Part shown: positions 2,799-30,747 of the stretch, one piece after another | How positions within the stretch are numbered: the first letter of the stretch is position 1 | Layout of the letters: every line of letters starts with the position of its first letter | NCBI GenBank assembly: GCA_030589055.1 | Contig: JAUUWK010000001.1 | Coordinates: forward strand, 1-37,712 | Direction: 5' to 3' | Length of the DNA stretch: 37,712 nucleotides | DNA from: Candidatus Bathyarchaeota archaeon | GTDB lineage: Archaea; Thermoproteota; Bathyarchaeia; Bathyarchaeales; Bathycorpusculaceae | Translations under genes and position numbers: made by a program | The notes under the pieces: generated by a model | What the model saw: only the letters and a program-made list of their open reading frames with translations | The model's database searches: none | What the model was told of the DNA's origin: nothing

Positions 2799-2813
2799 AG
2801 TCGCGCGCGCTAC
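2799..2813 (-). repeat. (CG)n motif copy S1, AGTCGCGCGCGCTAC on the + strand (reverse complement GTAGCGCGCGCGACT)
   Basis: A 15-nt exact match to copy S3 at 16335-16349. It is intergenic. Confidence 0.8.
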
Positions 2814-3015
2814 GATCTATGAAAAGAAAACCAAAAGAGGTTTGGAAAAATTCCTGAAGATCAGGAAAATGCTAAATCAAGAATACTTAGAGACCGAGCT
2901 GCTTCTGAGAAAAGAAAAGCTGCGGAAACGAAAGAACGTAGGAAATATGCGGGAAAATATGAGAATACAAGGAATGAAAAACGTATATATTTGGATCTCA
3001 CTTATGGCTAAATAG

Positions 3016-3540
3016 GTGAAAACTGTGAAGTGGGTGACCCGCGAATTCGTTCATGTAGACAGAACTGCATGCCCGTGGCTTATCAAGAAATTCATAGACT
3101 CACAAGCCGAATTCATGTTTGTACCAACAGAAAGAATAGCAGAAACCGCAAAAACTCGAGGAGCAACACCTTTTGACGTGCCCGGAGTTAAGCTTGGACA
3201 TAGAAACGGAAAATGCAGCTTCGAAACCATAATAGAAGAATACAAGTTGAAAGACCCTGTGCTTCATGAACTCGCCAAAATCGTTCATTCAGCAGATACA
3301 CGCGACACTGAACTGGCCCCTGAAGGAATAGGTTTAAGCTCAATAATGACTGGCGCAAGATTTAATGTAAAAGACGATTCTGAAGCAGTAGAGAAGGCTG
3401 CATACGTTTATGATGCACTTTACACCTATTGCAAAATTAAGCTGCTCCGCGAGAGATGCAAGAATGAATTAGAGAAGATGAACCGAAAACAGCAAAGAGA
3501 GTTCTTAAGAAAGAAGATGCGAGAGGAAATAACAGGTTAA
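3016..3540 (+). CDS. ChrB-like (chromate-resistance C-terminal domain) protein
   Basis: 'WVTREFVHVDRTACPWLIKKFIDSQAEFMFV...ATPFDVPGVKLGHRNGKCSFETII' resembles the Chrome_Resist/ChrB C-terminal domain pattern. The start codon is GTG. Confidence 0.55.
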   Translation: MKTVKWVTREFVHVDRTACPWLIKKFIDSQAEFMFVPTERIAETAKTRGATPFDVPGVKLGHRNGKCSFETIIEEYKLKDPVLHELAKIVHSADTRDTELAPEGIGLSSIMTGARFNVKDDSEAVEKAAYVYDALYTYCKIKLLRERCKNELEKMNRKQQREFLRKKMREEITG

Positions 3541-3992
3541 CGTTTTCTCCCACCTTTATGTATTGAAGTTAAACGGTAGCATCATATTTATAGGGGATTG
3601 CATAGACTTGCTTAAAGCTTCTTCTAGAGTCCTTTATTTTTGGCTAACTGTTGGCGAAAGTCTCTGATACTTCTCCTATAGCAGTGAATATGATCCATAG
3701 AATTATTGGAATTTCGTTGCTGGAATTATTGCTGAACTGCTGAAACCAAAAATTAAGAAAACTAAGAAGGTAATTGAAAGGCATGCTGAAATAAGAATTA
3801 GTCAAATCATCCTTCTAAGCTTCGTTTTTCCTTTCATTTCATCTTTTATAATCCATAAATAGGAAAGGTAAATTACCAATGCGAGTAACAGGAAATCCCA
3901 ATGAAAACATATCATTTAACTCGTTTAATTCTTAAGATAGCGCCTCTACTAAAGTTTTATTACTTCTTAAGTTCAATAGCCCAAAACCAATA

Positions 3993-5225
3993 GTGTTCAA
4001 AGCTGGTTTGCTGATGGCTTCACAGACAAGAAACGCTAGAGATAGCACTTTTTTGATGATATGCATTATGGGATCATTTGCGATCTTAAGCTCTACAATG
4101 TCAAAAAACCCTGTTTTGAATCCGTTTGCCACAAGTCTCGGAACTCCAGAAGTTTGGTTGGGTTTTATAGCTGCTGCTTCAACTATTCCCGGCATTTTGA
4201 TTAGTTTGCCCGCTGCTTCACTTTCAGACATTTATGGTAGAAAGAAATTCTTGTTAATATCAGGATTTGTCTTTGCTTCAGCTCCTTTCCTTTATCTTTC
4301 TGTAACTGTGTGGTGGCAACTCATCCTCGTCAGGTTTTACCATGGATTTGCAACGGCAATCTTTGTCCCAGTCGCTGAAGCCTCAGTGGCTAAGCTGTTT
4401 CCAACTAAACGAGGAGAACGCATATCACTTTTTTCTTCAGTAACGTACGTTGGGAGAGGGATTGCACCTTTTCTGGGTGCCTACATGCTACTCGTCACCA
4501 ACACAGATTTTGATGTGCTTTATTTGGCTGTAGGCGCTGCTGGTGTGACAGCGTTTATTTTGGCTTTGCTTTTTTTAGTTGAGAGGAAGAAGCAACCCGT
4601 ACCTTTGCAGCAGAAGAATGAGAAAGAGATTGTTAGGAGGGTGTACCGCGGATGGGGAAAAGTTGCTAGAAACCACGATGTTTTAGTGGTGAGTTTTGTT
4701 CAAGCTTGTCAATTTTATACCTATGGCGCGGTTGAATATTTTCTGGTTGGTTATTTAACTAAGGTTGTTCACTTTGACTGGTTCATAACCGGCGTTATTA
4801 GTGGAAGCCTCTTAGTAGTGCCGATTGTGGCTAAACCGTATATGGGCAGAATTTCAGACAAGGTTGGAAGACGAATTCCGATAATTGCAGGCTGCATAAT
4901 AGGGAGTCTTCCTTTATTGGTGATTCCTTTCGTCGTTGAGTCTTCCATTCTCCTTCTGCTTTCAGTAGTTTACGGATTTGGTTTTGCAGCTGTAACGGCT
5001 TCCACATCAGCTTTAGTCAGCGAGCTTGTACCCAAGGAATTAGTCGGCACATCCATGGGGTTTCTCGCCACAATAATGGATGTTGGTCAGACCATAGGGC
5101 CAATCATTACAGGGATGATAATTGCAACAAACGTGGCCTACCAAGGCTCATTTCCAGCATTAACCGCAGTACTACTGCTTTCTTGTGTAATATTCACCTT
5201 GTCCAGAGTTGCCAAAACTAAATAG
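3993..5225 (+). CDS. MFS transporter (more likely start at ATG 4014)
   Basis: About 12 hydrophobic segments. It has the MFS loop 2-3 motif 'LSDIYGRKKFLLISG' and a second-half motif 'ISDKVGRRIPII'. Confidence 0.85.
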   Translation: MFKAGLLMASQTRNARDSTFLMICIMGSFAILSSTMSKNPVLNPFATSLGTPEVWLGFIAAASTIPGILISLPAASLSDIYGRKKFLLISGFVFASAPFLYLSVTVWWQLILVRFYHGFATAIFVPVAEASVAKLFPTKRGERISLFSSVTYVGRGIAPFLGAYMLLVTNTDFDVLYLAVGAAGVTAFILALLFLVERKKQPVPLQQKNEKEIVRRVYRGWGKVARNHDVLVVSFVQACQFYTYGAVEYFLVGYLTKVVHFDWFITGVISGSLLVVPIVAKPYMGRISDKVGRRIPIIAGCIIGSLPLLVIPFVVESSILLLLSVVYGFGFAAVTASTSALVSELVPKELVGTSMGFLATIMDVGQTIGPIITGMIIATNVAYQGSFPALTAVLLLSCVIFTLSRVAKTK

Positions 5226-5417
5226 CCATTCATAGAAGCCCTGAAAAGAGATTGTCGAACGAAAAATACTCACCTATTTCTTCTGATAAAACCTGCAAAA
5301 AGTCTAGACACTTACGCTTCAACTTTCTCACTTGCTTTACTGAAAAAAGGAAGAAAGAGATGGTCTTTCCTCTTGAGTAGAGAGGTGTAATCTAATTGAA
5401 TGTAGACGAGTTCGCAC

Positions 5418-5738
5418 TCATTTTTCCAGCAGATTGATTTTGATTTCTTTTATTTTCAATTTCCAGATTTTTTCAGGTGCTCCTCCGCCAGTTTCTCTGT
5501 ATTCTGCTAGTTCGATGATGCCTGCTTCTTCCAGTTCGGAGAGATGGTAGTAGAGCCCTGATCTTGAGAGTGATTCTCCAGCCTTCTCTAATTCCTTCAG
5601 TATTTCTTTCGAGCCTCTTGTTTTATCTCCTATCGAGCGGGTTATGAGCCATCTTGTTGGGCAATGAAGTGCCCCAAAGTATTTCTGGATTTGAGTCAAA
5701 TCTTTTAGGTTGGAGTGTCTGCATCCGTTAGTGCACAT
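5418..5738 (-). CDS. ArsR/SmtB-type winged-helix transcriptional regulator
   Basis: 'ALHCPTRWLITRSI...GSKEILKELEKAGESLSRSGLYYHLSELEEAGIIE' is a typical ArsR HTH. The N-terminus is Cys-rich. Confidence 0.7.
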   Translation of the reverse strand: MCTNGCRHSNLKDLTQIQKYFGALHCPTRWLITRSIGDKTRGSKEILKELEKAGESLSRSGLYYHLSELEEAGIIELAEYRETGGGAPEKIWKLKIKEIKINLLEK

Positions 5739-5778
5739 GTTCCCATCTTGCCTTTAATATCTATAAAGGAGTTTTAGC

Positions 5779-6715: not shown

Positions 6716-8829
6716 AGTTTGTTAGAAAACGTGATGGAAGATTAGAACCTTTTGATCAGGAACGAATAACAAACGCGATTTGGAAGGCAGCGCGCGCTAT
6801 AGGTGGAAAAGACCGCGAGTTAACCAAGAAACTAAGTGACCAAGTTGTGGTCTTGCTTCAGGAACGCTTCGGAGAAGACGGCGTTCCAACTGTTGAGGAA
6901 ATCCAGGACTTGGTTGAGAAGATAATCATAAAAAATGGGTATGCAAGAACAGCCAAGGCTTACATTCTCTACCGGAAGCAGCATCAAGACTTGCGTGAGT
7001 TAGCTGCCCTACTAAGCTCAGCAGATCTTGTGGATCAATACTTGAATACTGAGGATTGGCGGGTGAGGGAAAATTCGAATATGAGTTATTCGTTGCAGGG
7101 CTTAAATAATTATTTGTCGTCCACGGTTATAGCGAAGTATTGGATTACACGGATTCATCCGCCTAAAGTTGCAGACGCACACTTTTCCGGAGATCTACAT
7201 ATTCACGACTTAGGCGTTTTGGGACCGTACTGCGTGGGCTGGGACATAAAAGACCTGCTTCTTTCAGGATTCGGCGGCGTAAAGGCAAAGATAGAGAGTA
7301 CGCCTGCGAAACACTTCAGAACCGCTCTTGGGCATGTGGTGAACTTCTTTTATACGCTTCAGGGAGAGGCGGCGGGAGCTCAGGCTTTCAGCAACTTTGA
7401 TACATATTTGGCACCGTTCATACGTTATGATGGATTAAGCCGAAAGGAAGTTGAGCAGGCGCTTCAGGAATTCTTCTTCAACATGAACGTGCCAACCCGT
7501 GTGGGTTTCCAAACACCCTTTACGAATTTAACCTTGGACCTTACAGTTCCGGAGTTTATGAAGGACGAGTCTGTGATTGTCGGTGGAAAGGTGATGAATG
7601 AAACTTACGGCGAGATGCAAGAGGAATTAGACATTTTCAATCTTACCTTCGCGGAAGTTATGTGTAAGGGAGATTCGAAGGGTAGGGTTTTCACTTTTCC
7701 GATACCGACATATAACATAACGAAGGATTTTGATTGGGAGAACGGGGTCTGTGAGAAGCTCTTTGAAGTTACTGCCAAGTATGGTGTGCCATACTTCTCT
7801 AACTTCATAGGCAGTGACATGAAGCCTGAAGACGTTAGGAGTATGTGTTGTCGCTTAAGAATAGACAACCGAGAACTGCGTAAGCGCGGCGGCGGTTTCT
7901 TCGGAGCAAATCCGTTAACGGGCAGCATAGGTGTAGTGACGATTAATCTTCCGAGGATAGGATATTTAGCGAAGGATGAGGATGAATTTTTTGAACGTTT
8001 AGGGGAGATGATGGAGACTGCCAAGAACAGCTTAGAGACAAAGAGAAAGGTGCTTGAAAAATTCACAGAGAACGAGTTGTATCCATACTCGAGGCGTTAT
8101 CTTCATCAAGTAAAGGAAGGTTTTGGGAAATTCTGGAAAAACCATTTCTCGACAATAGGGTTAGTGGGCATGAATGAGGCATTGCTGAATCTCTTTGGAC
8201 GTGGCATAGGAACTCCAGAAGGATTAGACTTTGCAGCAAAAGTGCTAAGCTTCATGCGAAACAAACTGGCAGATTTTCAGGAGGAAACTGGAAGCATATA
8301 TAACCTTGAGGCAACGCCTGCTGAAGGCACATCTTACAGACTCGCGCGCATAGACAAACGGAAATATCCAAATATTATTGTAGCTAATGAGAAACATCTT
8401 GCAAAAGGCGTTGAACCTTTCTACACCAATTCTTCACAGTTGCCTGTGGACTATGAAGTGGACTTGTTTGAGGCTTTAAGGCATCAGGATAGATTACAGA
8501 CGCTTTACACTGGCGGCACAGTTTTCCACATCTATCTTGGTGAGCGGATCTATTCGTGGAAGGCTGCAGCTGAACTCGCTAGGAAGGTGGCTTGGAACTC
8601 GCATCTGCCCTACTTCACTTTGACGCCTACCTTCAGCGTTTGTCCAACTCACGGTTACGTAGGCGGCGAACACAAACAATGCCCAACGTGCGGAGCAAGA
8701 TGTGAGGTTTACTCGAGGGTTGTTGGTTATCTCAGGCCAGTTGACCAGTGGAATGACGGTAAACAGGCGGAATTTGCTATACGTAGAAGCTTTGACAAAT
8801 CTGTTGTTTTGGCAACTGTGCATGCGTGA
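6712..8829 (+). CDS. nrdD: Anaerobic (class III) ribonucleoside-triphosphate reductase
   Basis: An N-terminal ATP-cone, the active-site region 'SMCCRLRID', a C-terminal Zn site 'CPTHG...CPTCG', and a glycyl-radical motif 'YSRVVGYLRP'. Confidence 0.95.
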   Translation: MKFVRKRDGRLEPFDQERITNAIWKAARAIGGKDRELTKKLSDQVVVLLQERFGEDGVPTVEEIQDLVEKIIIKNGYARTAKAYILYRKQHQDLRELAALLSSADLVDQYLNTEDWRVRENSNMSYSLQGLNNYLSSTVIAKYWITRIHPPKVADAHFSGDLHIHDLGVLGPYCVGWDIKDLLLSGFGGVKAKIESTPAKHFRTALGHVVNFFYTLQGEAAGAQAFSNFDTYLAPFIRYDGLSRKEVEQALQEFFFNMNVPTRVGFQTPFTNLTLDLTVPEFMKDESVIVGGKVMNETYGEMQEELDIFNLTFAEVMCKGDSKGRVFTFPIPTYNITKDFDWENGVCEKLFEVTAKYGVPYFSNFIGSDMKPEDVRSMCCRLRIDNRELRKRGGGFFGANPLTGSIGVVTINLPRIGYLAKDEDEFFERLGEMMETAKNSLETKRKVLEKFTENELYPYSRRYLHQVKEGFGKFWKNHFSTIGLVGMNEALLNLFGRGIGTPEGLDFAAKVLSFMRNKLADFQEETGSIYNLEATPAEGTSYRLARIDKRKYPNIIVANEKHLAKGVEPFYTNSSQLPVDYEVDLFEALRHQDRLQTLYTGGTVFHIYLGERIYSWKAAAELARKVAWNSHLPYFTLTPTFSVCPTHGYVGGEHKQCPTCGARCEVYSRVVGYLRPVDQWNDGKQAEFAIRRSFDKSVVLATVHA

Positions 8830-10445: not shown

Positions 10446-10460
10446 GAAGCACGCGCGCTA
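10446..10460 (+). repeat. (CG)n motif copy S2, GAAGCACGCGCGCTA (weaker copy)
   Basis: It shares TTGAAGC..CGCGCGC with S4/S6 and CGCGCGCTA with S1/S3. It is intergenic, 5 nt from the pmbA stop. Confidence 0.5.
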
Positions 10461-10465
10461 GGGTG

Positions 10466-11839
10466 TTAGTAGGCGGATATCCCTACGAATTTTAGTTTTT
10501 GGATTTTCATTGAGGGGACTGTTGTTGCTTTTATCATTTCAAGTTTTTTGCCGATCAATGGTATGTTGCTTAGGGCTGAGAGCATGCTGTCCGTGAACCG
10601 CATATTCACAATCGGCTTAGATATTTCACCGTTTTCAATCAGGAAGGTTCCGTCTCTCGTCAGCCCCGTTAAAACCATCTTTGCCGGTTCAACAGGGTTC
10701 ACGTAATGAAACGTCGTAACGAATATTCCACGCTTTGTTTCAGCAACCATTTCCTCCAAAGTAGCATCTCTTGGACTCGCAATTAAGTTGAAGGGCATAG
10801 GACGCTCAGAATAAAAATCACTGATAGGAGGCAAAGCATGACCAGTGCTCTTCTTACCTTCCTTACCAGCAGTAAAAGAGTTATAACATATGCTCTCTTC
10901 AGAAACAACTCCGTTGCTTATCAAGTGTGAAGTCCTCTTCGGGACTCCTTCACCATCGATTGGCGTTGCATAAAGCGTCTGCGGATCTCTAGCATCATCT
11001 TTTACGTTAAGTTTGCCGTCGAAAACCTGCTGATTCAGACAATACTTGACAAACGATCGTCCATCCTGATATGAAGTCGCTGAGAACCCAATGTAGCCAA
11101 GATACATTAAAAGTGTCGCAGAAGCCAAAGGCGACAAAACAACCTCGTACTCGCCCGGAGAAAGATTGATTGGATTTATGCTCTTCACAGATTTTTCAGT
11201 GGCATCTCCAGCCAAAACAGCTGGTTCAATGTCTTTAACACGCCTCGAATACTTCTCAGCAGTTCCAAAACCCTCTGAAGCCCCAGACTTGGAAATAACC
11301 GTGGTCTTCATGTTTGTCGAGGATATTCTAGCCGACGCTGAGACACCCAACGAATTCGCCACCGCATAAGCCATCGAGCTACTTGAAAAAAAACCTGCAA
11401 CAGCCTTCACAATCGAAGACTTCGAATGTGCAGTTTCAATAGCCTCTTTAACCTTTTCCGCTCTGTACATAGGCGTACAATTCGCTGTCTCCTCGTCAAA
11501 GGTTCCTTCAATAGGAGCCCAAGATTGCGGTTCCGGCAAGCTCTTAAAGTCCTTGTTTGGCGGTGAAGCCCCTGCAATCTTCACTGCCTGCAATACAGCC
11601 TTTTCAATTTGTTCTTTTTCCAAAGTGTTAACACGTGTTGTGCTGATCTGCTTGTTCAGGATCACCTTGATTAATACTCCACCCTTTTTCGTTGCAACAT
11701 TCTGATGTATCTGGGAATTCGCAAACCTTGTCAACGTCGTGTCAAGCAGAAACCCCGAAGCCTGCGCTTGATCGATATTCTGTCGCATAGCATATTGCAC
11801 AGTTTTCTCCGCTATTCCTAACAATCTTTCTGTAACCAA
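10466..11839 (-). CDS. pmbA: PmbA/TldE-family protein (partner of TldD)
   Basis: Length and overall TldD/PmbA-fold pattern. It lacks the HExxxH motif and lies immediately downstream of tldD. Confidence 0.8.
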   Translation of the reverse strand: MVTERLLGIAEKTVQYAMRQNIDQAQASGFLLDTTLTRFANSQIHQNVATKKGGVLIKVILNKQISTTRVNTLEKEQIEKAVLQAVKIAGASPPNKDFKSLPEPQSWAPIEGTFDEETANCTPMYRAEKVKEAIETAHSKSSIVKAVAGFFSSSSMAYAVANSLGVSASARISSTNMKTTVISKSGASEGFGTAEKYSRRVKDIEPAVLAGDATEKSVKSINPINLSPGEYEVVLSPLASATLLMYLGYIGFSATSYQDGRSFVKYCLNQQVFDGKLNVKDDARDPQTLYATPIDGEGVPKRTSHLISNGVVSEESICYNSFTAGKEGKKSTGHALPPISDFYSERPMPFNLIASPRDATLEEMVAETKRGIFVTTFHYVNPVEPAKMVLTGLTRDGTFLIENGEISKPIVNMRFTDSMLSALSNIPLIGKKLEMIKATTVPSMKIQKLKFVGISAY

Positions 11840-14265: not shown

Positions 14266-14816
14266 TTACCGTAAAGCTGGGTGGTCTGTGTGGCGCCTCA
14301 AACCACACTTGCAGTCAATTGGTTGGCCCACTTTGAAACGACAAATAAGCCCCCTCCCCCTAGGTTTTTTTAGGCAGGTTGCCTGGCACGTCTTTCTTGC
14401 GCCACGCGTCGTTGGCTAGTCAAAACTGAAAGGAAGCCTTCCAAGACAATGTGCAACAAAGAGTGTTGATAGACGGGGCAGTTTTTCTAAGTTCTAACAT
14501 AAAAAAAAGGGATGGGTGTCGACGAAGCACATTCTACCTTTTCACATTGTTGAACTCGCCTCTCAAAGCTCTCTTAGCCATAATGCAAACTCCTCCCTTA
14601 TGCTTTTCAGGTAGAAGCCGTTCTTGAGCAAAAATGAAGTATGTCCTCTCCAAGATTTGTAGCGCGCATCTCGTAACAACCCGTCCCCAAAAAACCTAGG
14701 GGGGTAGATCCCACTGGCAAAAATTGCAAGCGACACTTCGCTAACTTGTTTCAGAAAGCAGAAAATAGGGGTTCTTGGAAAGTGAAATCTTGTACTAAAA
14801 TAGTATTACCGTAAAG
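14266..14816. repeat. Non-coding block bracketed by an 11-bp direct repeat and containing a 15-bp perfect inverted repeat. It may be a MITE-like insertion or a structured RNA
   Basis: The direct repeat is TTACCGTAAAG at 14266-14276 and 14806-14816. The inverted repeat is CCCCCTAGGTTTTTT at 14356-14370 and its complement at 14689-14703. All coordinates were read directly from the sequence. There is no convincing ORF. Confidence 0.4.
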
Positions 14817-14860
14817 TATATTTCCATCAGGATGTTTTAGGCTTTAAATTCAGGACACAA

Positions 14861-15553
14861 GTGGAATATGCGATGGAAATTAAAGCAGTAGTCTTTGATC
14901 TTGATGGAACCCTTGCCCGTTTCAACCTGAATTATAAGGCTGTGAGAGTAGAGGTTAGAAGCTTTCTTACAAAGAAGGGCTTTCCAGCCTCGATCCTATC
15001 AACGAATGAAAGCATATTCGAAATGCTGAAAAAAGCTGAAGTATTCTTGAAAAACAACGGCAAATCAGAGAAAGTAATAGAAGAAATCTACGGGAAAGCT
15101 TTGGCAATAGCCGAAAAATACGAGTTAGAAGCTGCAAAAACTACAAGCTTACTTCCGGGTGCGGCTGAGACCCTTAATACGTTAAAGAAGATGGGCTTGA
15201 AAATTGGCTTATTCACAATTAACAGTGAAAAGTCCACAAACTACATCTTGAAACGGTTCAGAATAGCAGACTTTTTCGATGTAGTGATTCCAAGAAACAG
15301 TGTAAAACACGTTAAACCTAGCAGTGAACACCTCGAAGCCGCTTTAAAGGCTTTAGAGGTTAATCCAGATGAGACAATAGTTGTTGGAGATGGGATCAGC
15401 GATATGAGATGCGCCAAAGAACTAAAAGCGATTGCCGTGGGTTTGCCAACGGGAATCTCTTCCCAAAAGAAACTAGCCTATTCGGGAGCAAACTACATAA
15501 TCACGTTAATTACAGACATACCAACGCTAATAGAACAGACCAGCGAAGCTTAG
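14861..15553 (+). CDS. HAD-superfamily hydrolase (phosphoglycolate phosphatase-like)
   Basis: Motif I 'VVFDLDGTL', motif II 'GLFTINS', a conserved Lys in 'VKHVKPS', and motif IV 'VVGDGISDM'. Confidence 0.85.
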   Translation: MEYAMEIKAVVFDLDGTLARFNLNYKAVRVEVRSFLTKKGFPASILSTNESIFEMLKKAEVFLKNNGKSEKVIEEIYGKALAIAEKYELEAAKTTSLLPGAAETLNTLKKMGLKIGLFTINSEKSTNYILKRFRIADFFDVVIPRNSVKHVKPSSEHLEAALKALEVNPDETIVVGDGISDMRCAKELKAIAVGLPTGISSQKKLAYSGANYIITLITDIPTLIEQTSEA

Positions 15554-15555
15554 CA

Positions 15556-16336
15556 TTACACTTCAAGCTCTGAAAGTTTACGTTTTTTGTTGAGAGCAAG
15601 AATCGAAGCTGATGCAGCGATTAAACCTATGGCTAAACCTGAAACCACCCCATCATCAGACCGAAATCCATGCCCGCTACATAATTTTCTTCGTTTGCCT
15701 TTTGAACGTTCACAGTTTTCACAGATAACGGAATGGTTTCAGCCATGTTCCCAGCCTTGTCGTAAGCAACAAGCCTTATTGTGTGTGTTCCATCACCAAC
15801 CTCAGTTGTATTCCATTCATATGAATAAGATGCGGTGACATTAAGTGCCGCGGAGTCTATGTAGAGAAACACATCATCTAGGTTCTAGTCTGAAACATTA
15901 AGTTCTATTACTACTATTCCTGTTAGCTCAGCTCCATTCAGATCCGCGGAATTTATCATGCTAACCTCGGGATCAGTGTTGTCCACAGTTATCGTGACAG
16001 TCTCATCGACGACATTCCCAGCATTGTCAATCACAGTTAGGGTAATCGTGTAGTTTCCATCAATCAGCTCTGTTGTGTCAAGTGTGAACTCTGTTACGTC
16101 AGTTACATTATAAACTACAGCAGCTATTCTCAATGTGGCGTTTTTCAAGTTTGCATCATAATGCCTAAAGGATATACTGCATGGTCCACCTATGATTTGT
16201 CCCTCATCAGGCGCTAGAATTTTAGCTGTAGGGGTCATGTTATCTAAGGTTACAATCGTGGGTAACGTGGCGTTGGTGTTTGCAGCTTCGTCTAGTGCCA
16301 TTAACGTCAGTACGTGTTCTCCATCTGTTATCCCAG
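15556..16336 (-). pseudogene. Remnant of a cell-surface protein with Ig-like repeats
   Basis: The motif 'DG.h.l.L.a.D.AGN' occurs three times ('DGEHVLTLMALDEAAN', 'DGNYTITLTVIDNAGN', 'DGTHTIRLVAYDKAGN'). The fragment has no N-terminus or signal peptide, and the frame opens right at motif S3. There is an in-frame TAG at 15885-15887. The C-terminal anchor 'GVVSGLAIGLIAAASASILALNKKRK' lies in a shifted frame. Confidence 0.75.
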
Positions 16337-16349
16337 TCGCGCGCGCTAC
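16335..16349 (-). repeat. (CG)n motif copy S3, AGTCGCGCGCGCTAC
   Basis: Identical to S1 over 15 nt, and also shares CTATnAAA 3 nt further on. It abuts the truncated 5' end of the surface-protein remnant. Confidence 0.8.
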
Positions 16350-16393
16350 TTCCTATTAAATCTAAGATGTTAAAGTAATTGAAGATTATTCTG

Positions 16394-18125: not shown

Positions 18126-19280
18126 ATGAGTGAAGTTGCCATTGTAGGTGTTGGATGCGTTGGTTTTCAACCAATACTACCGGAACTATCATACAAGGAG
18201 TTGATGTATGAAGCAGCTGTAAAAGCCTATGAGGACGCTGGAGTTGATCCACGTAAAGACGTTGATGTCTTCATCACTTGTGCTGAGGATTACTTGGAAG
18301 GCTTCAGCATCTTCGATGAATTCGTTCCAGACCAATTAGGTGCCGTGTTACGTCCTCTATTCACGGTTTCAGGCGACGGACTTCTTGGGTTGGCAAATGC
18401 TTATATGCTTATTAAGACTGGACATTTTGACACGGTTGTTCTTGAAGCTCACAGCAAAGCCTCAGACCTGCTCACATTAATGGACGTTATTGCATTCGCC
18501 CTAGATCCAGTACTCAACAGACCCTTGGGTGGTCATCCGTACTATGTTGCTGGAATGGAGATGAACCGCTATTTGCACGATACTTGCGCAACTGTGGAGC
18601 AGTGTGCTCAAGTTGTCGTCAAAAACAGGAAAAATGCTTGTGGAAATCCTTACGCGGCGTATGGTGCCAACATGACTTTAGATCAAGTTTTATGCTCTGA
18701 CATGTACTTCTATCCGTTGAAAAAGTTGGAGATAAGCACGCCTGCAGACGGTTGCGTAGTCATGGTGTTGGCTTCTGAGAAGGTTGCGGAAAAGCTTACA
18801 GACAAGCCTGTTTGGGTTAAGGGTGTTGGATGGTGCACTGAAACTCCAAATCTAGAAACAAAAGACTGGTCTAAATCTGTAGATACTCGGTTGGCGGCTG
18901 AAATGGCATACAAAACAGCCAAAATACACAATCCACGGAAGGAGGTAGACTTAGCAGAGGTCAACGACCTATTTGCATACAAGGAACTTCAACACATGGA
19001 AGCACTAAAACTATGCGCGTGTGGGGAGGCTGGAAAATTGACAGAAGAAGGGGTTACAGCTAGAAACGGCGAATTGCCTGTGAATCCCTCTGGAGGCTTG
19101 CTTGGAATGGGATACGGACTTGAGGCGTCAGGAATGGAAAAACTTCTGGAAGTGGTTTTGCAGTTAAGAAGTGAAGCGGGCAGAAGGCAAATACGCGACG
19201 CGGAGATTGGCTTGGCTCACGCTTGGCGTGGAATACCAACAACGACTGGAATTGTGGCAGTTTTAAGCAATAATAAGTGA
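18126..19280 (+). CDS. Thiolase-fold protein, apparently lacking the catalytic Cys and His
   Basis: It is collinear with the thiolase at 16797-17969. The nucleophile position reads 'TVSGDGLLGL' (Ser), and the 'GHP.GATG' position reads 'GMGYGLEASG'. Confidence 0.8.
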   Translation: MSEVAIVGVGCVGFQPILPELSYKELMYEAAVKAYEDAGVDPRKDVDVFITCAEDYLEGFSIFDEFVPDQLGAVLRPLFTVSGDGLLGLANAYMLIKTGHFDTVVLEAHSKASDLLTLMDVIAFALDPVLNRPLGGHPYYVAGMEMNRYLHDTCATVEQCAQVVVKNRKNACGNPYAAYGANMTLDQVLCSDMYFYPLKKLEISTPADGCVVMVLASEKVAEKLTDKPVWVKGVGWCTETPNLETKDWSKSVDTRLAAEMAYKTAKIHNPRKEVDLAEVNDLFAYKELQHMEALKLCACGEAGKLTEEGVTARNGELPVNPSGGLLGMGYGLEASGMEKLLEVVLQLRSEAGRRQIRDAEIGLAHAWRGIPTTTGIVAVLSNNK

Positions 19281-19293
19281 GGTGAAATGTGAA

Positions 19294-20460
19294 ATGTTTG
19301 GCAAAAAAAGAGTTGCAATTGTTGGAGCTGGCTTGACCCTATTCCGAAGACGCTTAAAAGAAACAGGTAAAGAACTGTCTTATGAAGCGTCAAAAATGGC
19401 TCTCGATGCTGCTGGAATGGAATTGCGAGATATGCAAAGCGTTGTATTGGGAACGGCGCCAGATGCTTTCGACGGAGTTCACATGAAAGGCGAATATTTA
19501 GCAGATGGGGCAGGAGCATACCGAAAACCATACACAAGGGTTTTCGTTGGTGGCGGAACAGGAGTTTTTACACCTCTGGCGGGTTGGTGGCACGTAGCCT
19601 CTGGACAGTTCGACTCATGCTTGGTTGTCGCTGAAGAGAAGATGTCCTCTTGTTATCCGCATCCTCAATATGCTTTCACAACGATATTCGACCCGATCCT
19701 CGAGCGACCGCTTGGCATGAACTTAATCTGGATATTTGCCTTGGAAATGCATCGTTACATGCACAAACACGGCATCAAGAAGGAAGATATAGCCCGAGTT
19801 TCCGTTAAAAACAAGGGAAATGCTCTAGATCATCCGTGTGCCCAATTAGGCGCAAAAATAACTGTTGAAGATGTTTTAAACTCTGAGGTTATGGCTTGGC
19901 CGGTTCAACGCTTGGATGTGAGTCCAACGAGTGACGGTGGTGCTGCGCTGGTTTTGGTTTCGGAGGATGTTGCCAAAGAGATTACTGATGACCCTGTTTG
20001 GATTGATGGTGCTGGCTGGTGCATTGACTCTACGCTTTGGACGAATCGTGACCTTTATTATCCGGATTATGTGGAGTGTGCAGCTCGTATGGCGTACAAG
20101 ATGGCTGGAATCAAAAATCCGCCGAAGGAGATCGACCTAGCTGAACCCTACGACCCATTTGACTATAAGGAACTTCATCACATGGAAGGGCTACTGCTGT
20201 GCAAGAAAGGGGAAGCACCAAAACTGACAGCGGAAGGCGTAACACAAAGGGACGGTGACTTACCGATAAATCCGTCTGGTGGACTGTTAGGCGTTGGCAA
20301 TCCAATAGCAGCGGCAGGCTTGATGAAAGTGTGTGAAATCTTTTGGCAGTTACGCGGCGAAGCAGGGAAGAGGCAGATTCCAGGCGATCCAAGAACCGGT
20401 TTGGCTCAAGCGTGGGGCGATCTGATGCAGTATGGCTCAGTGATTGTGTTGAGACGTTAA
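19294..20460 (+). CDS. Second thiolase-fold protein, apparently lacking the catalytic Cys and His (the track ORF begins at GTG 19282)
   Basis: The nucleophile position reads 'FVGGGTGVF' (Gly), and the 'GHP.GATG' position reads 'GVGNPIAAAG'. A GAGGTGA sequence precedes ATG 19294. Confidence 0.8.
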   Translation: MFGKKRVAIVGAGLTLFRRRLKETGKELSYEASKMALDAAGMELRDMQSVVLGTAPDAFDGVHMKGEYLADGAGAYRKPYTRVFVGGGTGVFTPLAGWWHVASGQFDSCLVVAEEKMSSCYPHPQYAFTTIFDPILERPLGMNLIWIFALEMHRYMHKHGIKKEDIARVSVKNKGNALDHPCAQLGAKITVEDVLNSEVMAWPVQRLDVSPTSDGGAALVLVSEDVAKEITDDPVWIDGAGWCIDSTLWTNRDLYYPDYVECAARMAYKMAGIKNPPKEIDLAEPYDPFDYKELHHMEGLLLCKKGEAPKLTAEGVTQRDGDLPINPSGGLLGVGNPIAAAGLMKVCEIFWQLRGEAGKRQIPGDPRTGLAQAWGDLMQYGSVIVLRR

Positions 20461-20475
20461 AGGAGGAGATGAAAC

Positions 20476-20997
20476 ATGAGTGAGAAGATTAAGGATTATC
20501 GGGGTGAAGCCTTAAAATCTGCAGACTTTAAAGAAGGGAGGGTTCCAACTGAGAAGTGTAGGCCGAAGGCCAAGTTCGCGTGGAGTGCAGGCATAGCCAT
20601 AGGCAGATTTCTTGAGGAGTTAAAGAAGGGAAAGATAATAGCATCAACATGTAGTAAGTGTGGACGCATTATGGTTCCGCCGAGGATATACTGTGAAAAC
20701 TGCTTTAAACCGACGGATGGCTGGAAATACGTGAAGGACACGGGGACAATAAACACTTATTCGGTTTCCTACTTAGCTGCAGACGCAAGCAGATTGAAAG
20801 AACCGATACTTGTTGCGATCATAGATTTGGACGGAGCCTCGAAAAACATGGGCTTAATCCATAAGCTTGGCGAAGTAGACAAAGATGAGATAAAATTCGG
20901 GATGAAAGTCAAAGCCGTATGGAAACCGAAGGAAGAACGAGTTGGCGCAATCACAGACATTAAATACTTCAAGCCAATAAAGGAGGCGACACCATGA
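20476..20997 (+). CDS. DUF35 OB-fold/Zn-ribbon protein, copy 2
   Basis: 'CSKCGRIMVPPRIYCENC' followed by an OB-fold tail 'IKFGMKVKAVWKP'. Confidence 0.85.
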   Translation: MSEKIKDYRGEALKSADFKEGRVPTEKCRPKAKFAWSAGIAIGRFLEELKKGKIIASTCSKCGRIMVPPRIYCENCFKPTDGWKYVKDTGTINTYSVSYLAADASRLKEPILVAIIDLDGASKNMGLIHKLGEVDKDEIKFGMKVKAVWKPKEERVGAITDIKYFKPIKEATP

Positions 20998-21467
20998 GCC
21001 TAGATAAAATAACAAACCCACTCCATATTCGCCACTGGCTGGGGGACATGGAAGCAGACTACATCTACACGTTAGGCATTGCTGGAGAACACTTCTTCAA
21101 GGAGATAAAGGAAAACGGAAGAATAATGGGTGCAAAATGTCCACGCTGCAACGTTGTCATTGTTCCACCGAGGATGTACTGTGAAAAATGCTTTGCAAAA
21201 CTTGAGGAATGGGTTGACGTAGGCACAAAAGGCACAATCCACACGTTCACGGTTGCCACAATAGATGTCGACGGTAAAAAACTGAAGGAGCCAGTGATAT
21301 TTGCATTGGTAAAGTTTGAGAGAGGTTGCGGCGGACTAATCCACAAGATAGGCGAAACGAAGACGAAGGAAGTGAAGATTGGCATGAACGTCGAGGCAGT
21401 CTTTAAGCCATCATTTGAAAGGAAAGCCTCCATAAACGACATAAAATACTTCAAACCAACTGAATAA
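20994..21467 (+). CDS. DUF35 OB-fold/Zn-ribbon protein, copy 3
   Basis: 'CPRCNVVIVPPRMYCEKC' followed by 'VKIGMNVEAVFKP'. It has a 4-nt overlap with copy 2. Confidence 0.85.
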   Translation: MSLDKITNPLHIRHWLGDMEADYIYTLGIAGEHFFKEIKENGRIMGAKCPRCNVVIVPPRMYCEKCFAKLEEWVDVGTKGTIHTFTVATIDVDGKKLKEPVIFALVKFERGCGGLIHKIGETKTKEVKIGMNVEAVFKPSFERKASINDIKYFKPTE

Positions 21468-21698: not shown

Positions 21699-21719
21699 AT
21701 GTTAGAAGCGCGCGCGCAC
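21699..21719 (+). repeat. (CG)n motif copy S4, ATGTTAGAAGCGCGCGCGCAC
   Basis: Matches S6 at 18 of 19 nt. It is an inverted counterpart of S3 (GWAG(CG)n core). Confidence 0.8.
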
Positions 21720-22082
21720 ATCTGGACAAAGAACTTCCGAAACTCGGAGTTGAATACACATCTCTATCCATCAAGAAACTGCTTGGAAAAAACGCTGAAA
21801 CCATAGTGAAAGCCGCTAAAAAAATGGGCAATCCATACAGGCAGCGAAAAAATACTCAGCATGATGACCAAGCACTACAAAATTCCATATGAAAAACTCA
21901 AAGAATCGTATGAAGTGCTCGATGAATACGGCAACTTATCTGGAGCAAGCCTACCTTTCATCCTTGAAAAAATAGTTAGAGAAAATAATTTTTCCGATGG
22001 CGATATCATTTTGATGCTTGGTTTCGGATGGGGATTTTCAGCCTCTGCTTGCATGCTAAAATTTAAGAAACAACAGAAATGA
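21719..22082 (+). pseudogene. 3' fragment of a type III PKS / KAS III-like condensing enzyme. It is 5'-truncated at motif S4 and has an internal frameshift near 21840
   Basis: 'HLDKELPKLGVEY...' is in one frame. 'IHTGSEKILSMMTKHYKIPYEKLKESYEVLDEYGNLSGASLPFIL...GDIILMLGFGWGFSA' is in another and matches the chalcone-synthase/FabH C-terminal pattern. The N-terminal two thirds, including the catalytic Cys, are absent. Confidence 0.75.
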
Positions 22083-22172: not shown

Positions 22173-23852
22173 ATGTCTGACAAAGAAAAAATTAATCAAA
22201 TAACAAGGGAACGGGAACGCTGGGAAAATACAACCCTACCCAAGTGGATGGGACAACGCCCTGAAAGAAAAAGCGAATTCCGAAACCATTCGGACACGTT
22301 GATAAAACGTGTCTACACACCAGAGGACATCAAAGACCTAGATTACATGCGAGACCTTGGTTTACCAGGCGAATACCCCTTCACCCGCGGAGTACATGCA
22401 ACCATGTACAGAGGCAGACTATGGACCATGCGGCAATTTTCAGGATACGGCACAGCAGAACAAACAAACCAGCGATTCAAATACCTGCTAAAAGAAGGAG
22501 AAACAGGACTAAGCATAGCCTTTGACTACCCAACAATTAGGGGTTACGATTCAGACAATCCATTCTCTCAAGGTGAAGTCGGCACATGCGGAGTAGCAGT
22601 CGCATCATTAAAGGACATGGAAGTTCTCTTTGACGGCATACCCCTCGACAAAGTCACAACCTCCATGACTGTTAATGGTCCAGCAGCAATGTTGCTTGCT
22701 ATGTACATAGCAGTGGGAGACAAGCAAGGAGTATCCAGAGAAAAGCTCGGAGGCACAACACAAAACGATGTTCTTAAAGAATTCTTCGCTCAGAAACTAA
22801 TCATATTTCCGCCGAAGCCCTCGATAAAACTTGTAACAGACATAGTAGAATACTGCACAAAACACATGCCCAGATGGAATCCCATAAGCATAAGCGGATA
22901 CCACATACGAGAAGCTGGGTCAAACGCCGTTCAAGAACTGGCTTTCACGCTTTATGATGGAATAACCTATGTGGAGTCATGCCTTGAAAGAGGAATGAAA
23001 GTTGACGAATTTGCCCCCCGCTTATCATTCTTCTTTGCATCCCACAACAACTTGTTTGAAGAGGTAGCCAAGTTCAGAGCAGCTCGTAGAATATGGGCAA
23101 AAGTAATGAAGGAACGCTTCCACGCTAAAAACTCAAGGTCCATGTGGATGCGTATGCATGTCCAAACTTCAGGATGCACCCTCACAGCACAACAGCCACT
23201 GAACAACATCACACGAACCACAATCCAGGCTTTAGCAGCAGTCTTGGGTGGAACCCAATCGTTACACACAAACTCCTTTGACGAAGCCTTATGCTTGCCA
23301 ACCGAAGACGCCGTCAAGGTCGCATTAAGAACCCAGCAGATAATAGCTCACGAAAGCGGATCAGCTGACACGATAGATCCCCTAGCAGGCTGCTACTACA
23401 TCGAATGCTTAACGAACGAAATGGAAGGACAAGCGATGGATTATATCCAAAGAATTGACGATATGGGCGGAGCCACTGTAGCCATAGAAAGAGGGTTCTT
23501 CCAAAAAGAAATTGCTGACAGCGCCTATAAATACCAGGGGGAAACAGATGAGAAAAAACGAATCATAGTGGGCGTAAACGAATACACAACTGGGGAGGAT
23601 GCAGCAATACCGATTTTAAGGATTGACCCAAAGGTTGAAGAGAAACAGGTTGCAGGGCTGCAAAAACTGAGAAGAGAAAGAGACAATAGAAAAGTGGATG
23701 AAGTGCTTGAAGAACTCCACTACGCCGCGGAAAAGGATGAAAACCTCATGCCAGTAATTATTGAAGCCGTAAAAGCTTACGCAACAATAGGCGAAATGTG
23801 CGGCGTATTACGGAAAATTTACGGAGAATATAAAGAACTGATAGTAATCTAG
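22173..23852 (+). CDS. Methylmalonyl-CoA mutase, catalytic (TIM-barrel) subunit
   Basis: '[51 protein letters not shown]' is the classic MCM signature. Confidence 0.95.
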
Positions 23853-23866
23853 AGGAGGGAAAACAC

Positions 23867-24274
23867 ATGCAGAGCGAAAGAAAAATCAGAATTTTGATCG
23901 CCAAGCCAGGTCTTGATAGTCACGACAGAGGAGCAAAGATTGTGGCTAGAGCCCTAAGGGACGCTGGAATGGAAGTAATCTACACCGGTTTGAGGCAGAC
24001 TCCAGAGCAGATAGTTGAAACCGCCCTTCAAGAAGATGTGGACATCATAGGCTTAAGCATACTTTCGGGAGCCCACAAGGTTCTTTTCCCACGAATAATG
24101 GAACTTGTAGAACAGAAGGGCTTGACAGATGTAATGGTCTTCGCTGGAGGCATAATCCCAGAAGAAGATGTCCCAGAAATGAAGAAACTCGGAATAAAAG
24201 AGATTTTTGGACCAGGAACCCCAACAGAGAAAATAGTTCAGTTTGTATTTGAAAATCTTCCAGAAAGAACCTGA
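23867..24274 (+). CDS. Methylmalonyl-CoA mutase, B12-binding subunit
   Basis: The cobalamin-binding motif '[14 protein letters not shown]' (DxHxxG) and 'GLSILSGAH'. Confidence 0.93.
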
Positions 24275-27662: not shown

Positions 27663-27810
27663 CAGTTTCCTTCTTTTTATGTTGAAAAGGTTATCTCTAA
27701 TCCTGTTAATGTACCCTACACGACTGATCTTGCTCCTAATTTCACTTACACCTCATTTAAGGATGAAGGTTAACCATTCTATATTTGCTTTGCGCGTGGA
27801 TTTTTCGGAG

Positions 27811-27824
27811 ACTCGCGCGCTTAC
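27811..27824 (-). repeat. (CG)n motif copy S5, ACTCGCGCGCTTAC (weaker copy)
   Basis: Its reverse complement GTAAGCGCGCGAGT resembles the reverse complements of S1 and S3. It is intergenic. Confidence 0.5.
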
Positions 27825-28009
27825 ATTAGCTTCCGATTTTTCAAGTTATCTGTCACACATTACCTTTTCTCAATTGGGGTTCGCTTTTAAACCTTATGAC
27901 TCTCACAGCGCACAGAAGTCATCCTGATTCTGATGTGGAATCCGAGTCTGAATCCACGATTCATAACCTATAGATAAGTAGCGCAACAAAGGGTCACTAC
28001 AAGATTTGT

Positions 28010-28630
28010 TTGGTGTTTCTGATGTCACTGAAGCTGAAGAAAATCATGGTAAAGAATGTCGTAACTGTGAACGCCAATGTTACTGTAAAGAAGGCGACTG
28101 AGATTATGAACAAACATGAAATTGGCTGTCTGGTTGTTGTTAGCGGTGGGAAACCTATAGGCATCGTGACTGAGAGAGACATGCTAAAAAGAATTATACA
28201 TGAGTTGAGGGAACCTGAAAAGACGAAGGTTATTGATATAATGTCAAAACCTTTGATTACAGCAGCGTCTAAAATGCGTGCAGGGGACGCTGCTAAACTT
28301 ATGTTTGAGCAAAAGATAAAGAAACTTCCAGTGGTTGAAAATGGAAGACTCGTTGGTTTGGTTACTTTAACGGATCTCATTCGTTCTCAAGAGGTGCTTA
28401 GTTTTCTAAACGGTTTCTCTACGAATGATGCACCCAGGCGCATGAAGAAGGTGGTCAACTTGTATTTTGACAGTGCAAAGCGCCATAGACGGAGATGTCC
28501 ACTCATAATGAAAGATGGCTTTTCAATGGGTTGTCAAGAAAAAAAGTGCATGTGGTGGCTTGGAGACGAATGCGCGATCACTAAGCTTTCTCGCCAAGTG
28601 CCCAACATGACAAGTGCGGTTCAAACATAA
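28010..28630 (+). CDS. CBS-pair protein with a Cys-rich C-terminal tail (the start may be internal)
   Basis: Two CBS modules ('IMVKNVVTV...IGCLVVV..GKPIGIVTERD' and 'IMSKPLITA...IKKLPVVENGRLVGLVTLTD') followed by 'RRCP...GC...KCMWWLGDEC'. Confidence 0.8.
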   Translation: MVFLMSLKLKKIMVKNVVTVNANVTVKKATEIMNKHEIGCLVVVSGGKPIGIVTERDMLKRIIHELREPEKTKVIDIMSKPLITAASKMRAGDAAKLMFEQKIKKLPVVENGRLVGLVTLTDLIRSQEVLSFLNGFSTNDAPRRMKKVVNLYFDSAKRHRRRCPLIMKDGFSMGCQEKKCMWWLGDECAITKLSRQVPNMTSAVQT

Positions 28631-28847
28631 TTTTCTCTTACTAAATGGTGTAGCTACATTGAACTCTGCAAAGAAATGAGGCAAAAGGAGAATAGCCTGC
28701 AGCAATCGCCTGCTTTGAAAATAGTACAGAATTGAAGTAAGTATTCTAAATCTAGAAGACGAGTAATCTATTCTGATTTTTCATAAGCTATAAATAGTGA
28801 AAAGGCTAAATCTACTTTTGCCGATTAGGGTTTAGGATGTTGATAAA

Positions 28848-29066
28848 ATGGTGAGTGAAGGTAGAGGGCGTTTGTTTCGTAGAAAGGATGGCAAGTACTT
28901 GATTTATTTGCCAGAGTACTTGGCTGAAGATAGCATGTTCCCGTTCAAAGATTTTGGCAGAGGCAGGAGAGGTGCAAGCGGTTCCATAGACGTAAAAGTG
29001 AGTTTCAAACCTGGCGGAGACGACAAGCTACTTATAGAAAAGTGGAAAGCACCAGAAAACCAGTAA
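28848..29066 (+). CDS. Small AbrB/SpoVT-like protein (tentative)
   Basis: 'GKYLIYLPEYLAEDSMFPF...IDVKVSF..GGDDKLLIEKW' resembles a swapped-hairpin barrel pattern. Confidence 0.35.
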   Translation: MVSEGRGRLFRRKDGKYLIYLPEYLAEDSMFPFKDFGRGRRGASGSIDVKVSFKPGGDDKLLIEKWKAPENQ

Positions 29067-29464
29067 AGTCGAATCATTGTTAACCAAATAACGGGCGCAT
29101 GAAACACGTCTAGAAGGCTGAATTCTACTGTATGTTTCCTTCGGCATATTTGCTATTCTTTAAAATGCAGTTAACCAATATGCATTGGGTTCCTGTATTC
29201 TCGATTTTGTTCCCGCTAACGTTGTATTCTTGAAAAGATACGGTTCAGTAAAGTGGTTGCTGGTAAAGTGAATCTATCGAAGCAGTTTCTTTCAGGATCT
29301 AGATATGTGGAATGAGCAGGTACAAGTCGTGGCACATTATGGTGGTGAATAGGCAAAGAGAAGCAGTCAAAATTAGGGGCGAAATCTAGTGCTTAACTAT
29401 AGCACACGTGTAGGGGTGGAAAGTATTAAGAGGTTGAGAGTAAGATAACGCACTCGGGTATACT

Positions 29465-30040
29465 ATGAAACTTCACGTTTCCATATTCAGGCATGGCGAA
29501 ACCTATTATAATAAGAGTAAGAGATTTACCGGGTGGATCAATTCAGGGTTGACACCTAGAGGAATCAGCCACGTCAAAGCAATAGCCGAGAAATTAAGAA
29601 AGAAGACTTTTCAAATAGCATTCAAAACAAGCCTTTCTCGTTCATCGGATACGCTGAAAATAGTTCTAAAGTATCATCCCGAATGCAAGAGAGTTGTCGT
29701 TGATGATAGAATGATAGAAAGATCTTATGGGGATCTTCAGAGGAGATTTCACAAAACTGTAATTAAACAATACGGTAAAAGGCAGTTCCACATTTGGCAC
29801 AGATCCTATGATGTCCCTCCTCCTGGAGGTGAATCAATCAGAATGGTCGAGAAAAGAGTTCTATCCTTTATAGATGATTTAATCATCCTTATGAAAAAGG
29901 AAAGAGTCAATGTTGCAGTATCTGCTCATGGAAATTCGATGAGACCGTTTAGAAGGTATTTTGAAAATCTAACCATAAAAGAAATGATGAAACTAGAAAA
30001 TCCCTACGACAAATATTTTGAATATGTTGTTGGATTCTAA
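29465..30040 (+). CDS. Histidine phosphatase (phosphoglycerate mutase superfamily)
   Basis: An 'RHGETYYN' catalytic RHG motif, 'ERSYGDL' and 'VSAHGNSMR'. Confidence 0.8.
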   Translation: MKLHVSIFRHGETYYNKSKRFTGWINSGLTPRGISHVKAIAEKLRKKTFQIAFKTSLSRSSDTLKIVLKYHPECKRVVVDDRMIERSYGDLQRRFHKTVIKQYGKRQFHIWHRSYDVPPPGGESIRMVEKRVLSFIDDLIILMKKERVNVAVSAHGNSMRPFRRYFENLTIKEMMKLENPYDKYFEYVVGF

Positions 30041-30099
30041 TTTCCACTGCACGCGTTTTACGCCAAATATTAATAGTTCACGGAGTACGATAAAATGTT

Positions 30100-30627
30100 A
30101 TGGTAGAATACGAATACTTCTGCATCTATGGATTTCGTACAGTTTATCCCGTTACTTGGAAAGTAGAGCTTGATCCAAAGTCGGAACGAAGTGAAGGGAA
30201 CGTTACCATCAAATCTCCTGAAAAAGCGAATATTGTTGTAAGTTGGGGACTACTTGAAAAGGCAAAGAAAAGGTATTCCTTCCTGAAAGAACATGCTAAG
30301 GACTCTATTAACAGAATAAAAAAGGAGTCAAAGATTAAAAAAGTTGAGTTAGTTCAGACTAAGGATATTCAAGTAAACTCACACAAAGCTATATTCTCTC
30401 ACATTAGAATAATCTTCTCCATGCCCAAACTATTGCCTTTTGGAAAGGCAAAAACATACGAGCAGGAAGTCTATAGTTTGCACTTCTATTGCGAACCTTC
30501 TAAGCGATACTTCGTGGTATATGGCGTAACAACATCTGATAAATCTGTACAACAAGGGCGCATCTTCAAGAATATTATACAATCTTTCATTTGCCATAAG
30601 GCGAAGGCGAGTCCTACTAATAAATAA
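30100..30627 (+). CDS. Hypothetical protein
   Basis: A 175-aa ORF with no recognisable motifs. Confidence 0.35.
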   Translation: MVEYEYFCIYGFRTVYPVTWKVELDPKSERSEGNVTIKSPEKANIVVSWGLLEKAKKRYSFLKEHAKDSINRIKKESKIKKVELVQTKDIQVNSHKAIFSHIRIIFSMPKLLPFGKAKTYEQEVYSLHFYCEPSKRYFVVYGVTTSDKSVQQGRIFKNIIQSFICHKAKASPTNK

Positions 30628-30727
30628 CGACATGTTGCGTTCGCACACTTGTTTGTCTCACAGTCTTCTGGATAAGTGTAGATATTGATTTTCATTTTTT
30701 ATTTCTAATGCATAAGGTTTTTCTGAG

Positions 30728-30747
30728 ATGTTGGAAGCGCGCGCGCC
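30728..30747 (+). repeat. (CG)n motif copy S6, ATGTTGGAAGCGCGCGCGCC
   Basis: Matches S4 at 18 of 19 nt. It lies 10 nt upstream of an orphan membrane-anchor fragment. Confidence 0.8.

Follow-up and report, generated by a model that had tools for sequence, protein, structure and literature searches.

Short alternating C/G palindromes in a Bathyarchaeia genus: candidate seams of rejoined DNA and landing sites of IS5-like elements

Insertion sequence (IS) elements that insert into repetitive extragenic palindromes (REPs) are known (PMC1525189), and the cyanobacterial palindrome HIP1 (GCGATCGC) is evolutionarily conserved and tied to two methyltransferases (PMC5861425, PMC4390886). The archaeal primase PriSL can tail 3′ ends and pair microhomologies (PMC12019639, PMC3333859); PriSL repair in Saccharolobus islandicus produces mostly 1–2-bp insertions and deletions (PMC12019639). 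In yeast and human cells, CG repeats that form Z-DNA cause DNA breakage and large deletions (PMC6957503). Here we analyse short alternating C/G runs in a stretch of 37,712 nucleotides from Candidatus Bathyarchaeota archaeon (contig JAUUWK010000001.1 of assembly GCA_030589055.1, referred to below as the window) and in related genomes. No description of this motif was found in the literature searched. With moderate confidence, we regard the runs as non-directional seams of DNA rejoining, new ones being made when ends are rejoined, and not as the crossover sites of a recombinase.

The window is contig C34 of an assembly of 832 kb in 82 contigs (42% G+C, 77% complete), here called G000, and was compared with seven other genomes of the genus (G001–G007). 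One of these, G001, is a 100% complete genome of 2.22 Mb in 20 contigs, and was aligned against G000 genome-wide; 68% of G000 aligned, with a median identity of 82%. A preliminary description of the window had listed six intergenic runs, and these were found where it had placed them. The sequence CGCGCGC matches the window 19 times when both strands are counted, against 1.33 expected, and none of 100 shuffles gave as many, which bears out the claim that the runs are far above chance. In G000 as a whole there are 117 alternating C/G runs of at least 6 nt, whose lengths peak at 8–9 nt, end at about 10 nt and do not follow a geometric distribution. A genome-wide search showed GCGCGCGC to be the most over-represented 8-mer of G000, with 74 sites against 3–9 expected under Markov models of order 2–4 (8–22-fold), and placed 53 of the 70 runs of at least 8 nt (76%) in intergenic DNA. 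Genomes of the genus contain 15–110 GCGCGCGC sites each, and those of most other genera of the family and order 0–7; two genomes outside the genus, G016 (30 sites) and G024, are also run-rich. The runs are A(GC)4–5T palindromes, typically of 8–10 nt, and are a peculiarity of this Bathyarchaeia genus that it shares with a few other genera in its order.

The six intergenic runs (S1–S6), the gene remnants beside them and two further runs in the window are as follows.

2802..2810, site S1: CGCGCGCGC run, directly adjoining a 5′-truncated gene fragment; matches to paralogues begin at 2812–2816.
2812..3011, + strand, remnant adjoining S1: C-terminal ~60 codons of a member of a multi-copy gene family.
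6790..6797, + strand, first nrdD run: GCGCGCGC in coding sequence, in continuous homology with the relatives; no seam.
8343..8349, + strand, second nrdD run: CGCGCGC in coding sequence; no seam; the G001 orthologue reads TGCCCGC.
10452..10458, site S2: CGCGCGC, 7 nt past the stop codon of the minus-strand gene 10466..11839.
15560..16337, − strand, pseudogene remnant at S3: C-terminal Ig-like repeats of a giant Peptidase_C25/Big-domain gene, reading out of the run, with an in-frame stop.
16338..16346, site S3: CGCGCGCGC, joint of a 6.3-kb deletion.
21708..21717, site S4: GCGCGCGCGC, 5′ truncation point of a gene.
21719..21892, + strand, remnant at S4: ACP_syn_III/HMG-CoA-synthase-like (375 amino acids in G001); 57 open codons, then stops.
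27814..27820, site S5: CGCGCGC, synteny break.
30737..30746, site S6: GCGCGCGCGC, inside a window-specific stretch of ~570 nt (30645–31212).

Comparison with the relatives indicates that five of the six sites lie at seams, and that two of these, S3 and S4, are demonstrable deletions that have cut genes; at S1, S2 and S5 the seams are probable. The earlier proposal that the sites coincide with block boundaries and truncated genes is confirmed by the alignments. At S3, contig C57 of G004 aligned to positions 14750–16337 and resumed at 16354. The 6.3 kb of G004 between these points belong to an intact open reading frame (ORF) of 2356 amino acids with Peptidase_C25 and Ig-like (Big) domains, a surface protease. 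At S4, the alignment starts at 21717–21719 in five relatives and at 21732 in a sixth, and in all six the ORF extends upstream (...NEPFKFGFYS/HLGKE...). In all six relatives the gene cut at S4 is intact and is the partner beside the thiolase/DUF35 genes (18126–21467 in the window), and it survives in the window as a decayed stump.

Longer paralogues of the remnant at S1 are present in G001 (C1:22114–22754 and C1:492602–493228). The same fragment in G004 is cut ~60 nt earlier, again exactly at a run, and both G001 and G006 lack 2727–3013, which holds the fragment, and have a different run 150 nt away. At S2, homology with G001, G006 and G002 stops at 10460–10462, 2–4 nt from the run, and on the far side there are 187 nt in the window against 2890 nt in G001. 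The S2 flank TAGGGTGTT looks like the inverted repeat of an IS, but the likeness was set aside as coincidence, since the AGGGTGTT portion of this flank belongs to the 3′ end of a gene and is conserved in the relatives. Homology to the left of S5 stops at 27787–27806 and begins again on the right at 27937, and the two flanks lie on separate G001 contigs (C3 and C7); in G006 and G007 it stops 8–10 nt from the run. The stretch containing S6 has no counterpart in the relatives, G001 holding 1166 unrelated nucleotides in its place. Its left edge (30644) reads GCGCGCGC in G003, GCGTGCGC in G001 and GCACAC in the window. The set of six was not complete, as two more runs lie within the nrdD ORF. These are ordinary coding occurrences, because they are inside continuous homology and the second is not kept in G001.

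Two further observations concern other parts of the window. A 76-amino-acid ORF at 28836–29066, called AbrB-like earlier, belongs to a multi-copy family with paralogues in every genome of the genus, including G000 (C67:6687–6914, C51:8964–9159 and C63:1171–1367). The last 141 nt (37572–37712) are 100% identical, in reverse orientation, to the end of contig C74 (G000:C74:21025–21165), and the two contigs probably join.

Joints of the same kind were found on other contigs of G000, where the following short sequences stand in place of longer G001 DNA.

C57:6112–6132: 19-nt filler GGGGAAGCGCGCGCGATAA; in G001, 7.8 kb with 12 ORFs.
C63:11014–11024: GCGCGCGCCAA; in G001, 1083 nt inside a phosphoglucomutase gene.
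C18:3885–3915: 29 nt containing GCGCGCGCG; in G001, a metallo-beta-lactamase-fold gene.
C79:756–791: 34 nt starting CGCGCGCGC; in G001, most of an aminotransferase gene.

Neither endpoint of these four deletions in G001, nor of the S3 deletion in G004, carries a run, and at all five joints, as at S4, nucleotides are present that come from neither parent. At the 41 junctions that are short in G000 and long in G001, the short sides hold 8 runs in 2.06 kb (3.9 per kb). Homology-block ends and runs also coincide more generally: of 83 runs, 14 are no more than 3 nt from a block end, where 3.7 would be expected and 200 random placements never gave more than 8. Contig C35 of G000 is a patchwork from three places in G001, its pieces joined by runs, and segmental duplicates within G001 terminate at runs. 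Between close genomes the runs persist, decaying by point changes. The reverse class of junction, long in G000 and short in G001, numbers 23, and the G000 losses include the phosphoglucomutase, aminotransferase and metallo-beta-lactamase-fold genes. Genome size is estimated at ~1.1 Mb for G000 and 2.2 Mb for G001. This imbalance, together with the genome sizes, suggests a deletion-biased, shrinking lineage, or losses in binning.

The joints bear on the possibility that the runs are pre-existing fragile, Z-DNA-prone sites, at which breaks erode one flank so that the run merely appears to mark the joint. Old runs are clearly used again as seams: at a place where G001 and G006 read CGCGCG, the run of G002 is 11 nt long and its left flank has been replaced, the window breaks at a run of G003 and G001, and the S1 fragment has different cut points in the window and in G004, both of them at runs. 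The effects of CG repeats in yeast and human cells cited above point the same way. Fragility does not, however, explain where the runs come from, including those at joints whose parental endpoints are both free of runs, such as the one in the phosphoglucomutase gene. Nor does it explain the length peak at 8–9 nt, and 8–10 bp is short for a B-to-Z transition. We consider this explanation improbable.

It had also been proposed that the runs are polar sites of crossover for a site-specific recombinase or an invertase; a related idea would make them the boundaries of integron-like cassettes. Either way they would divide the window into invertible or excisable units. Variable blocks are indeed bounded by runs, a 4.5-kb insert in G001 has runs near both its ends, and G000 has an integrase gene and integrase fragments elsewhere. 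However, the core of the run is its own reverse complement and there are no conserved arms. Genome-wide, flanking bias is confined to the first two positions outward (A(GC)nT, often TA...TA, with T then A after a run ending in C and A after a run ending in G), with none beyond. GWAG was taken in the preliminary description as part of a polar consensus GWAG(CG)n. Of 95 runs, 20 have it on a single flank and one has it on both, 21 in all, and the consensus does not hold. As the core is palindromic and no polar flank consensus exists, the strictly alternating orientation read from the six sites is not a property of the sites. S1 and S3 are identical over 15 nt and S4 matches S6 at 18 of 19 nt, as reported, and we estimate such flank identities to be at about chance level for the roughly 4500 pairs of runs in G000. 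Nor do the six form a set of paired sites specific to the window, the motif being genome-wide and genus-wide.

Other features of crossover sites are also lacking. The runs number ~100 sites per Mb, their positions are not conserved across the genus, the parental deletion endpoints carry no site, and no block was found inverted or excised in the seven relatives. The window contig gave no match to the integrase and transposase families searched genome-wide. In G000 one integrase is intact (C68) and others are fragments (C75 and C23), none of them linked to runs. We consider site-specific recombination at the runs very unlikely. The intact integrase on C68 is flanked by runs at 7–13 and 1412–1421.

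The distribution of runs across G000 was compared with its alignment to G001, giving the densities below.

Aligned coding DNA: 0.013 runs per kb.
Aligned intergenic DNA: 0.041 runs per kb.
Unaligned ORFs: 0.117 runs per kb.
Unaligned intergenic DNA: 0.96 runs per kb.

Conserved intergenic DNA thus has a 23-fold lower run density than intergenic DNA that is not conserved, and of 27 collinear gaps that bear a run in G000 only one also has a run in G001. The runs survive only in DNA unprotected by selection, and their positions turn over across the genus. Such a pattern is hard to reconcile with a run that is a binding site for a regulator or chromatin protein, or a signal for transcript ends, although the motif is an intergenic palindrome and shows a mild excess 0–30 nt after stop codons and a deficit 0–30 nt before start codons. 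Divergent, tandem and convergent spacers all contain runs, in numbers that roughly follow the length of the spacers. The runs stand at no fixed distance from genes and adjoin pseudogene stumps. A function of this kind has very little probability in our estimate, and a promoter or terminator element was rejected since every spacer type is occupied and the distance to genes is not fixed. A structured RNA was likewise rejected, as no tRNA, tmRNA or Rfam family was found within the window. The 300-nt flanks of all 96 G000 runs examined are unique except at tRNA-like genes (recognised by sequence) and small paralogous genes, so the run is not part of a larger repeat. Two runs, at G000:C66:11785 and C45:16184, are ~15–70 nt from tRNA-like genes identified from sequence only.

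In the relatives, runs serve as insertion sites for transposable elements. An intact IS5-like element at G001:C6:23048–24256 encodes DUF772 and DDE_Tnp_1 domains (transposase at 23103–24068), has the inverted repeat TAGGCTGTTTAGAAAT and is flanked as GCGCGC-IS-GCGCG. A second family of IS elements and miniature inverted-repeat transposable elements (MITEs) has the inverted repeat TGGYTTGTCCCKAAATT. A repeat search in G001 recovered ~35 IS and MITE ends of the two families, each preceded by a run of 5–9 nt, most often 6 nt. An empty site in G006 reads GCGCGCGCG and the occupied site in G001 reads GCGCGC-MITE-GCGCGCG, with the other flanks identical and a gain of 4 bp. In this pair the MITE has entered a 9-nt run that was already there, duplicating 4 bp. 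In eight complete IS and MITE copies there is no direct repeat outside the runs, which means that the IS does not bring the run along when it moves. Carriage of the run as part of the IS end was rejected on this basis, and because two 100% identical MITE copies hold 7-nt and 6-nt halves on opposite ends. The earlier suggestion that the runs are termini of an uncharacterised mobile element therefore stands in one part and falls in another: IS5-like elements and MITEs in the relatives are flanked by runs, but in G000, where the flanks are unique, the runs do not form the ends of a repeated element.

The contig ends of G001 and two complex loci involve the same elements. Most contig ends in G001 (on C1, C2, C3, C4, C5, C6, C8, C9, C10, C14, C16, C17 and C19) stop ~50 nt into one of the IS families (TAGGSTGTTTAGAAAT or TGGYTTGTCCCKAAATT); with so many IS and MITE ends at contig ends, these elements evidently fragment the assembly. 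In G001, a 2-kb insertion at C7:~57140–59125 (locus L154) consists of modules separated by runs and contains one MITE of each family. It is absent from G004, G005, G006 and G007, and the four empty sites have no run. On contig C140 of G004 (locus L170:1150–1960), a joint between sequences like G001 contigs C14 and C4 contains four runs together with two short unique pieces and a 140-nt fragment of an IS end, and on its right side GCGCGCGTGCTA replaces 41 nt of G001.

These elements provide a serious rival explanation, in which all runs are by-products of IS5-like transposons: each would be a duplicated target or an excision footprint, the IS having later been lost to leave a solo run. Deletions and mosaics would then arise by recombination between IS copies seated in runs, by aberrant transposition, or by repair of donor breaks. 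The intact element flanked by runs, the ~35 ends that all abut runs and the 4-bp duplication at the empty site speak for this model. The first IS inverted repeat is found in G001–G007, G024 and G026, and not in the run-poor genomes apart from one match with a single mismatch in G020. An IS fragment lies within the G004 rearrangement joint, and with a palindromic duplication of 4 bp, any two ends left by excision could pair.

Several observations are nevertheless at odds with it. Runs are denser in the G000 assembly than in any other of the genus, yet neither an IS inverted repeat nor a DDE match was found anywhere in it, though the completeness of G000 is only 77% and copies of IS elements are often lost in assembly. 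G016, with its 30 sites, has no match to either inverted-repeat pattern. Runs at scars are 8–10 nt long, mostly 9, while one IS-flanking half is ~6 nt and both halves together are 11–15 nt, lengths that are rare among solo runs; a simple excision footprint was rejected on this discrepancy. The deletion endpoints in the relatives offer no run on which an IS could have landed. Finally, an IS copy in G004 has been cut to 140 nt with GCGCGCGC at the internal break, which places a run at a break inside an IS, and, as noted, runs are not transported by the IS. Taken together, a transposon origin of all the runs appears less likely than the seam reading.

In our reading the runs are instead seams, found where DNA has been broken and joined again through deletion, insertion, duplication or translocation. 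The joints have a run of full length even though the parental endpoints in the relatives have none. We infer that new runs come into being as ends are rejoined, possibly because each end receives a self-complementary GC tail that lets it pair with any other. A run, once there, is a specific landing site for IS5-like elements and their miniature derivatives, with duplication of its central 4 bp as in the G006/G001 pair, and it can serve as a seam a second time, as in G002 compared with G001 and G006. We tentatively extend this scheme to the lineage as a whole, and think it possible, if still somewhat doubtful, that its double-strand breaks are sealed in an undescribed way, by stereotyped self-complementary (GC)4–5 tails, and that transposons later evolved to use the palindromic scars as safe landing sites.

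Canonical end joining by Ku and PolX was rejected as the source of the seams, as neither protein was found in the genus. Cutting by a restriction enzyme followed by fill-in and religation was rejected by reasoning, since it would give lengths of 6, 10 and 14 nt, or a series in steps of two, and not a peak at 8–9 nt. A fixed linker artefact is unlikely because the lengths of runs and filler vary and because the runs in the 20-contig G001 assembly are IS targets with duplications.

A number of points weigh against the interpretation of the runs as seams. Of the 41 short-allele junctions relative to G001, 33 have no run, and none of the five structural differences that separate the closely related G003 and G001 has one. 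No enzyme was identified: Ku (PF02735) and PolX (PF14791) gave no match in the eight genus genomes, G000 and the 100% complete G001 among them. The association with IS elements suggests a more conventional way for breaks to arise, and perhaps for the runs as well. The G000 genes come from a crude ORF heuristic (the ORF map is 86% coding), the G000 junctions are known from assemblies alone and not from read mapping, and kinship among genomes inflates the correlation in the comparison of run counts between lineages.

If the runs are repair scars, each event of breakage and rejoining in a genome would be recorded in them in readable form, and they would point to an undescribed end-joining activity in archaea that have no Ku. 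If they stem from transposons, the homing target would be unusually strict and tiny (8–10 bp), and excision might be seamless owing to the palindromic duplication. Under both readings, the runs are of practical use as markers of pseudogene ends, lost genes and mosaic joints in the annotation of Bathyarchaeia. The contig breaks of G001 also indicate that the run-associated IS limits the assembly of these genomes.

Each of the nearest known systems differs from the runs in a defining respect. Like the IS elements that home to REPs and the IS5 group, a DDE family here lands specifically in a short, abundant intergenic palindrome, makes a 4-bp duplication and shares its ends with miniature derivatives. 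The target, however, is 8–10 bp of pure alternating GC without conserved flanks and not the 20–40-bp hairpin that characterises REPs and bacterial interspersed mosaic elements (BIMEs). No RAYT-like mobiliser is known for the runs (RAYT proteins were not searched), and the runs also occur at fresh deletion joints. HIP1 is, like GCGCGCGC, an 8-bp GC-rich palindrome that is over-represented in a lineage-specific manner, GCGCGCGC likewise being the top 8-mer; in contrast to HIP1, the runs are nearly confined to non-conserved spacers, at positions that are not conserved across the genus. Deletions starting at alternating CG are shared with the Z-DNA-prone (CG)n tracts (PMC6957503), but those tracts are longer and are present before the break, whereas the runs are also found at joints that previously had none. 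The filler of end joining, including the products of PriSL, resembles the runs in that short DNA from neither parent is present exactly at deletion joints. Known fillers are short and of variable sequence, whereas those described here are stereotyped, self-complementary (GC)n of 8–10 nt. Microhomology joining by PriSL with terminal transfer is the Ku-independent route known in archaea, and since in Saccharolobus islandicus it gives mostly 1–2-bp insertions and deletions, it provides an analogy for the runs and not an identification.

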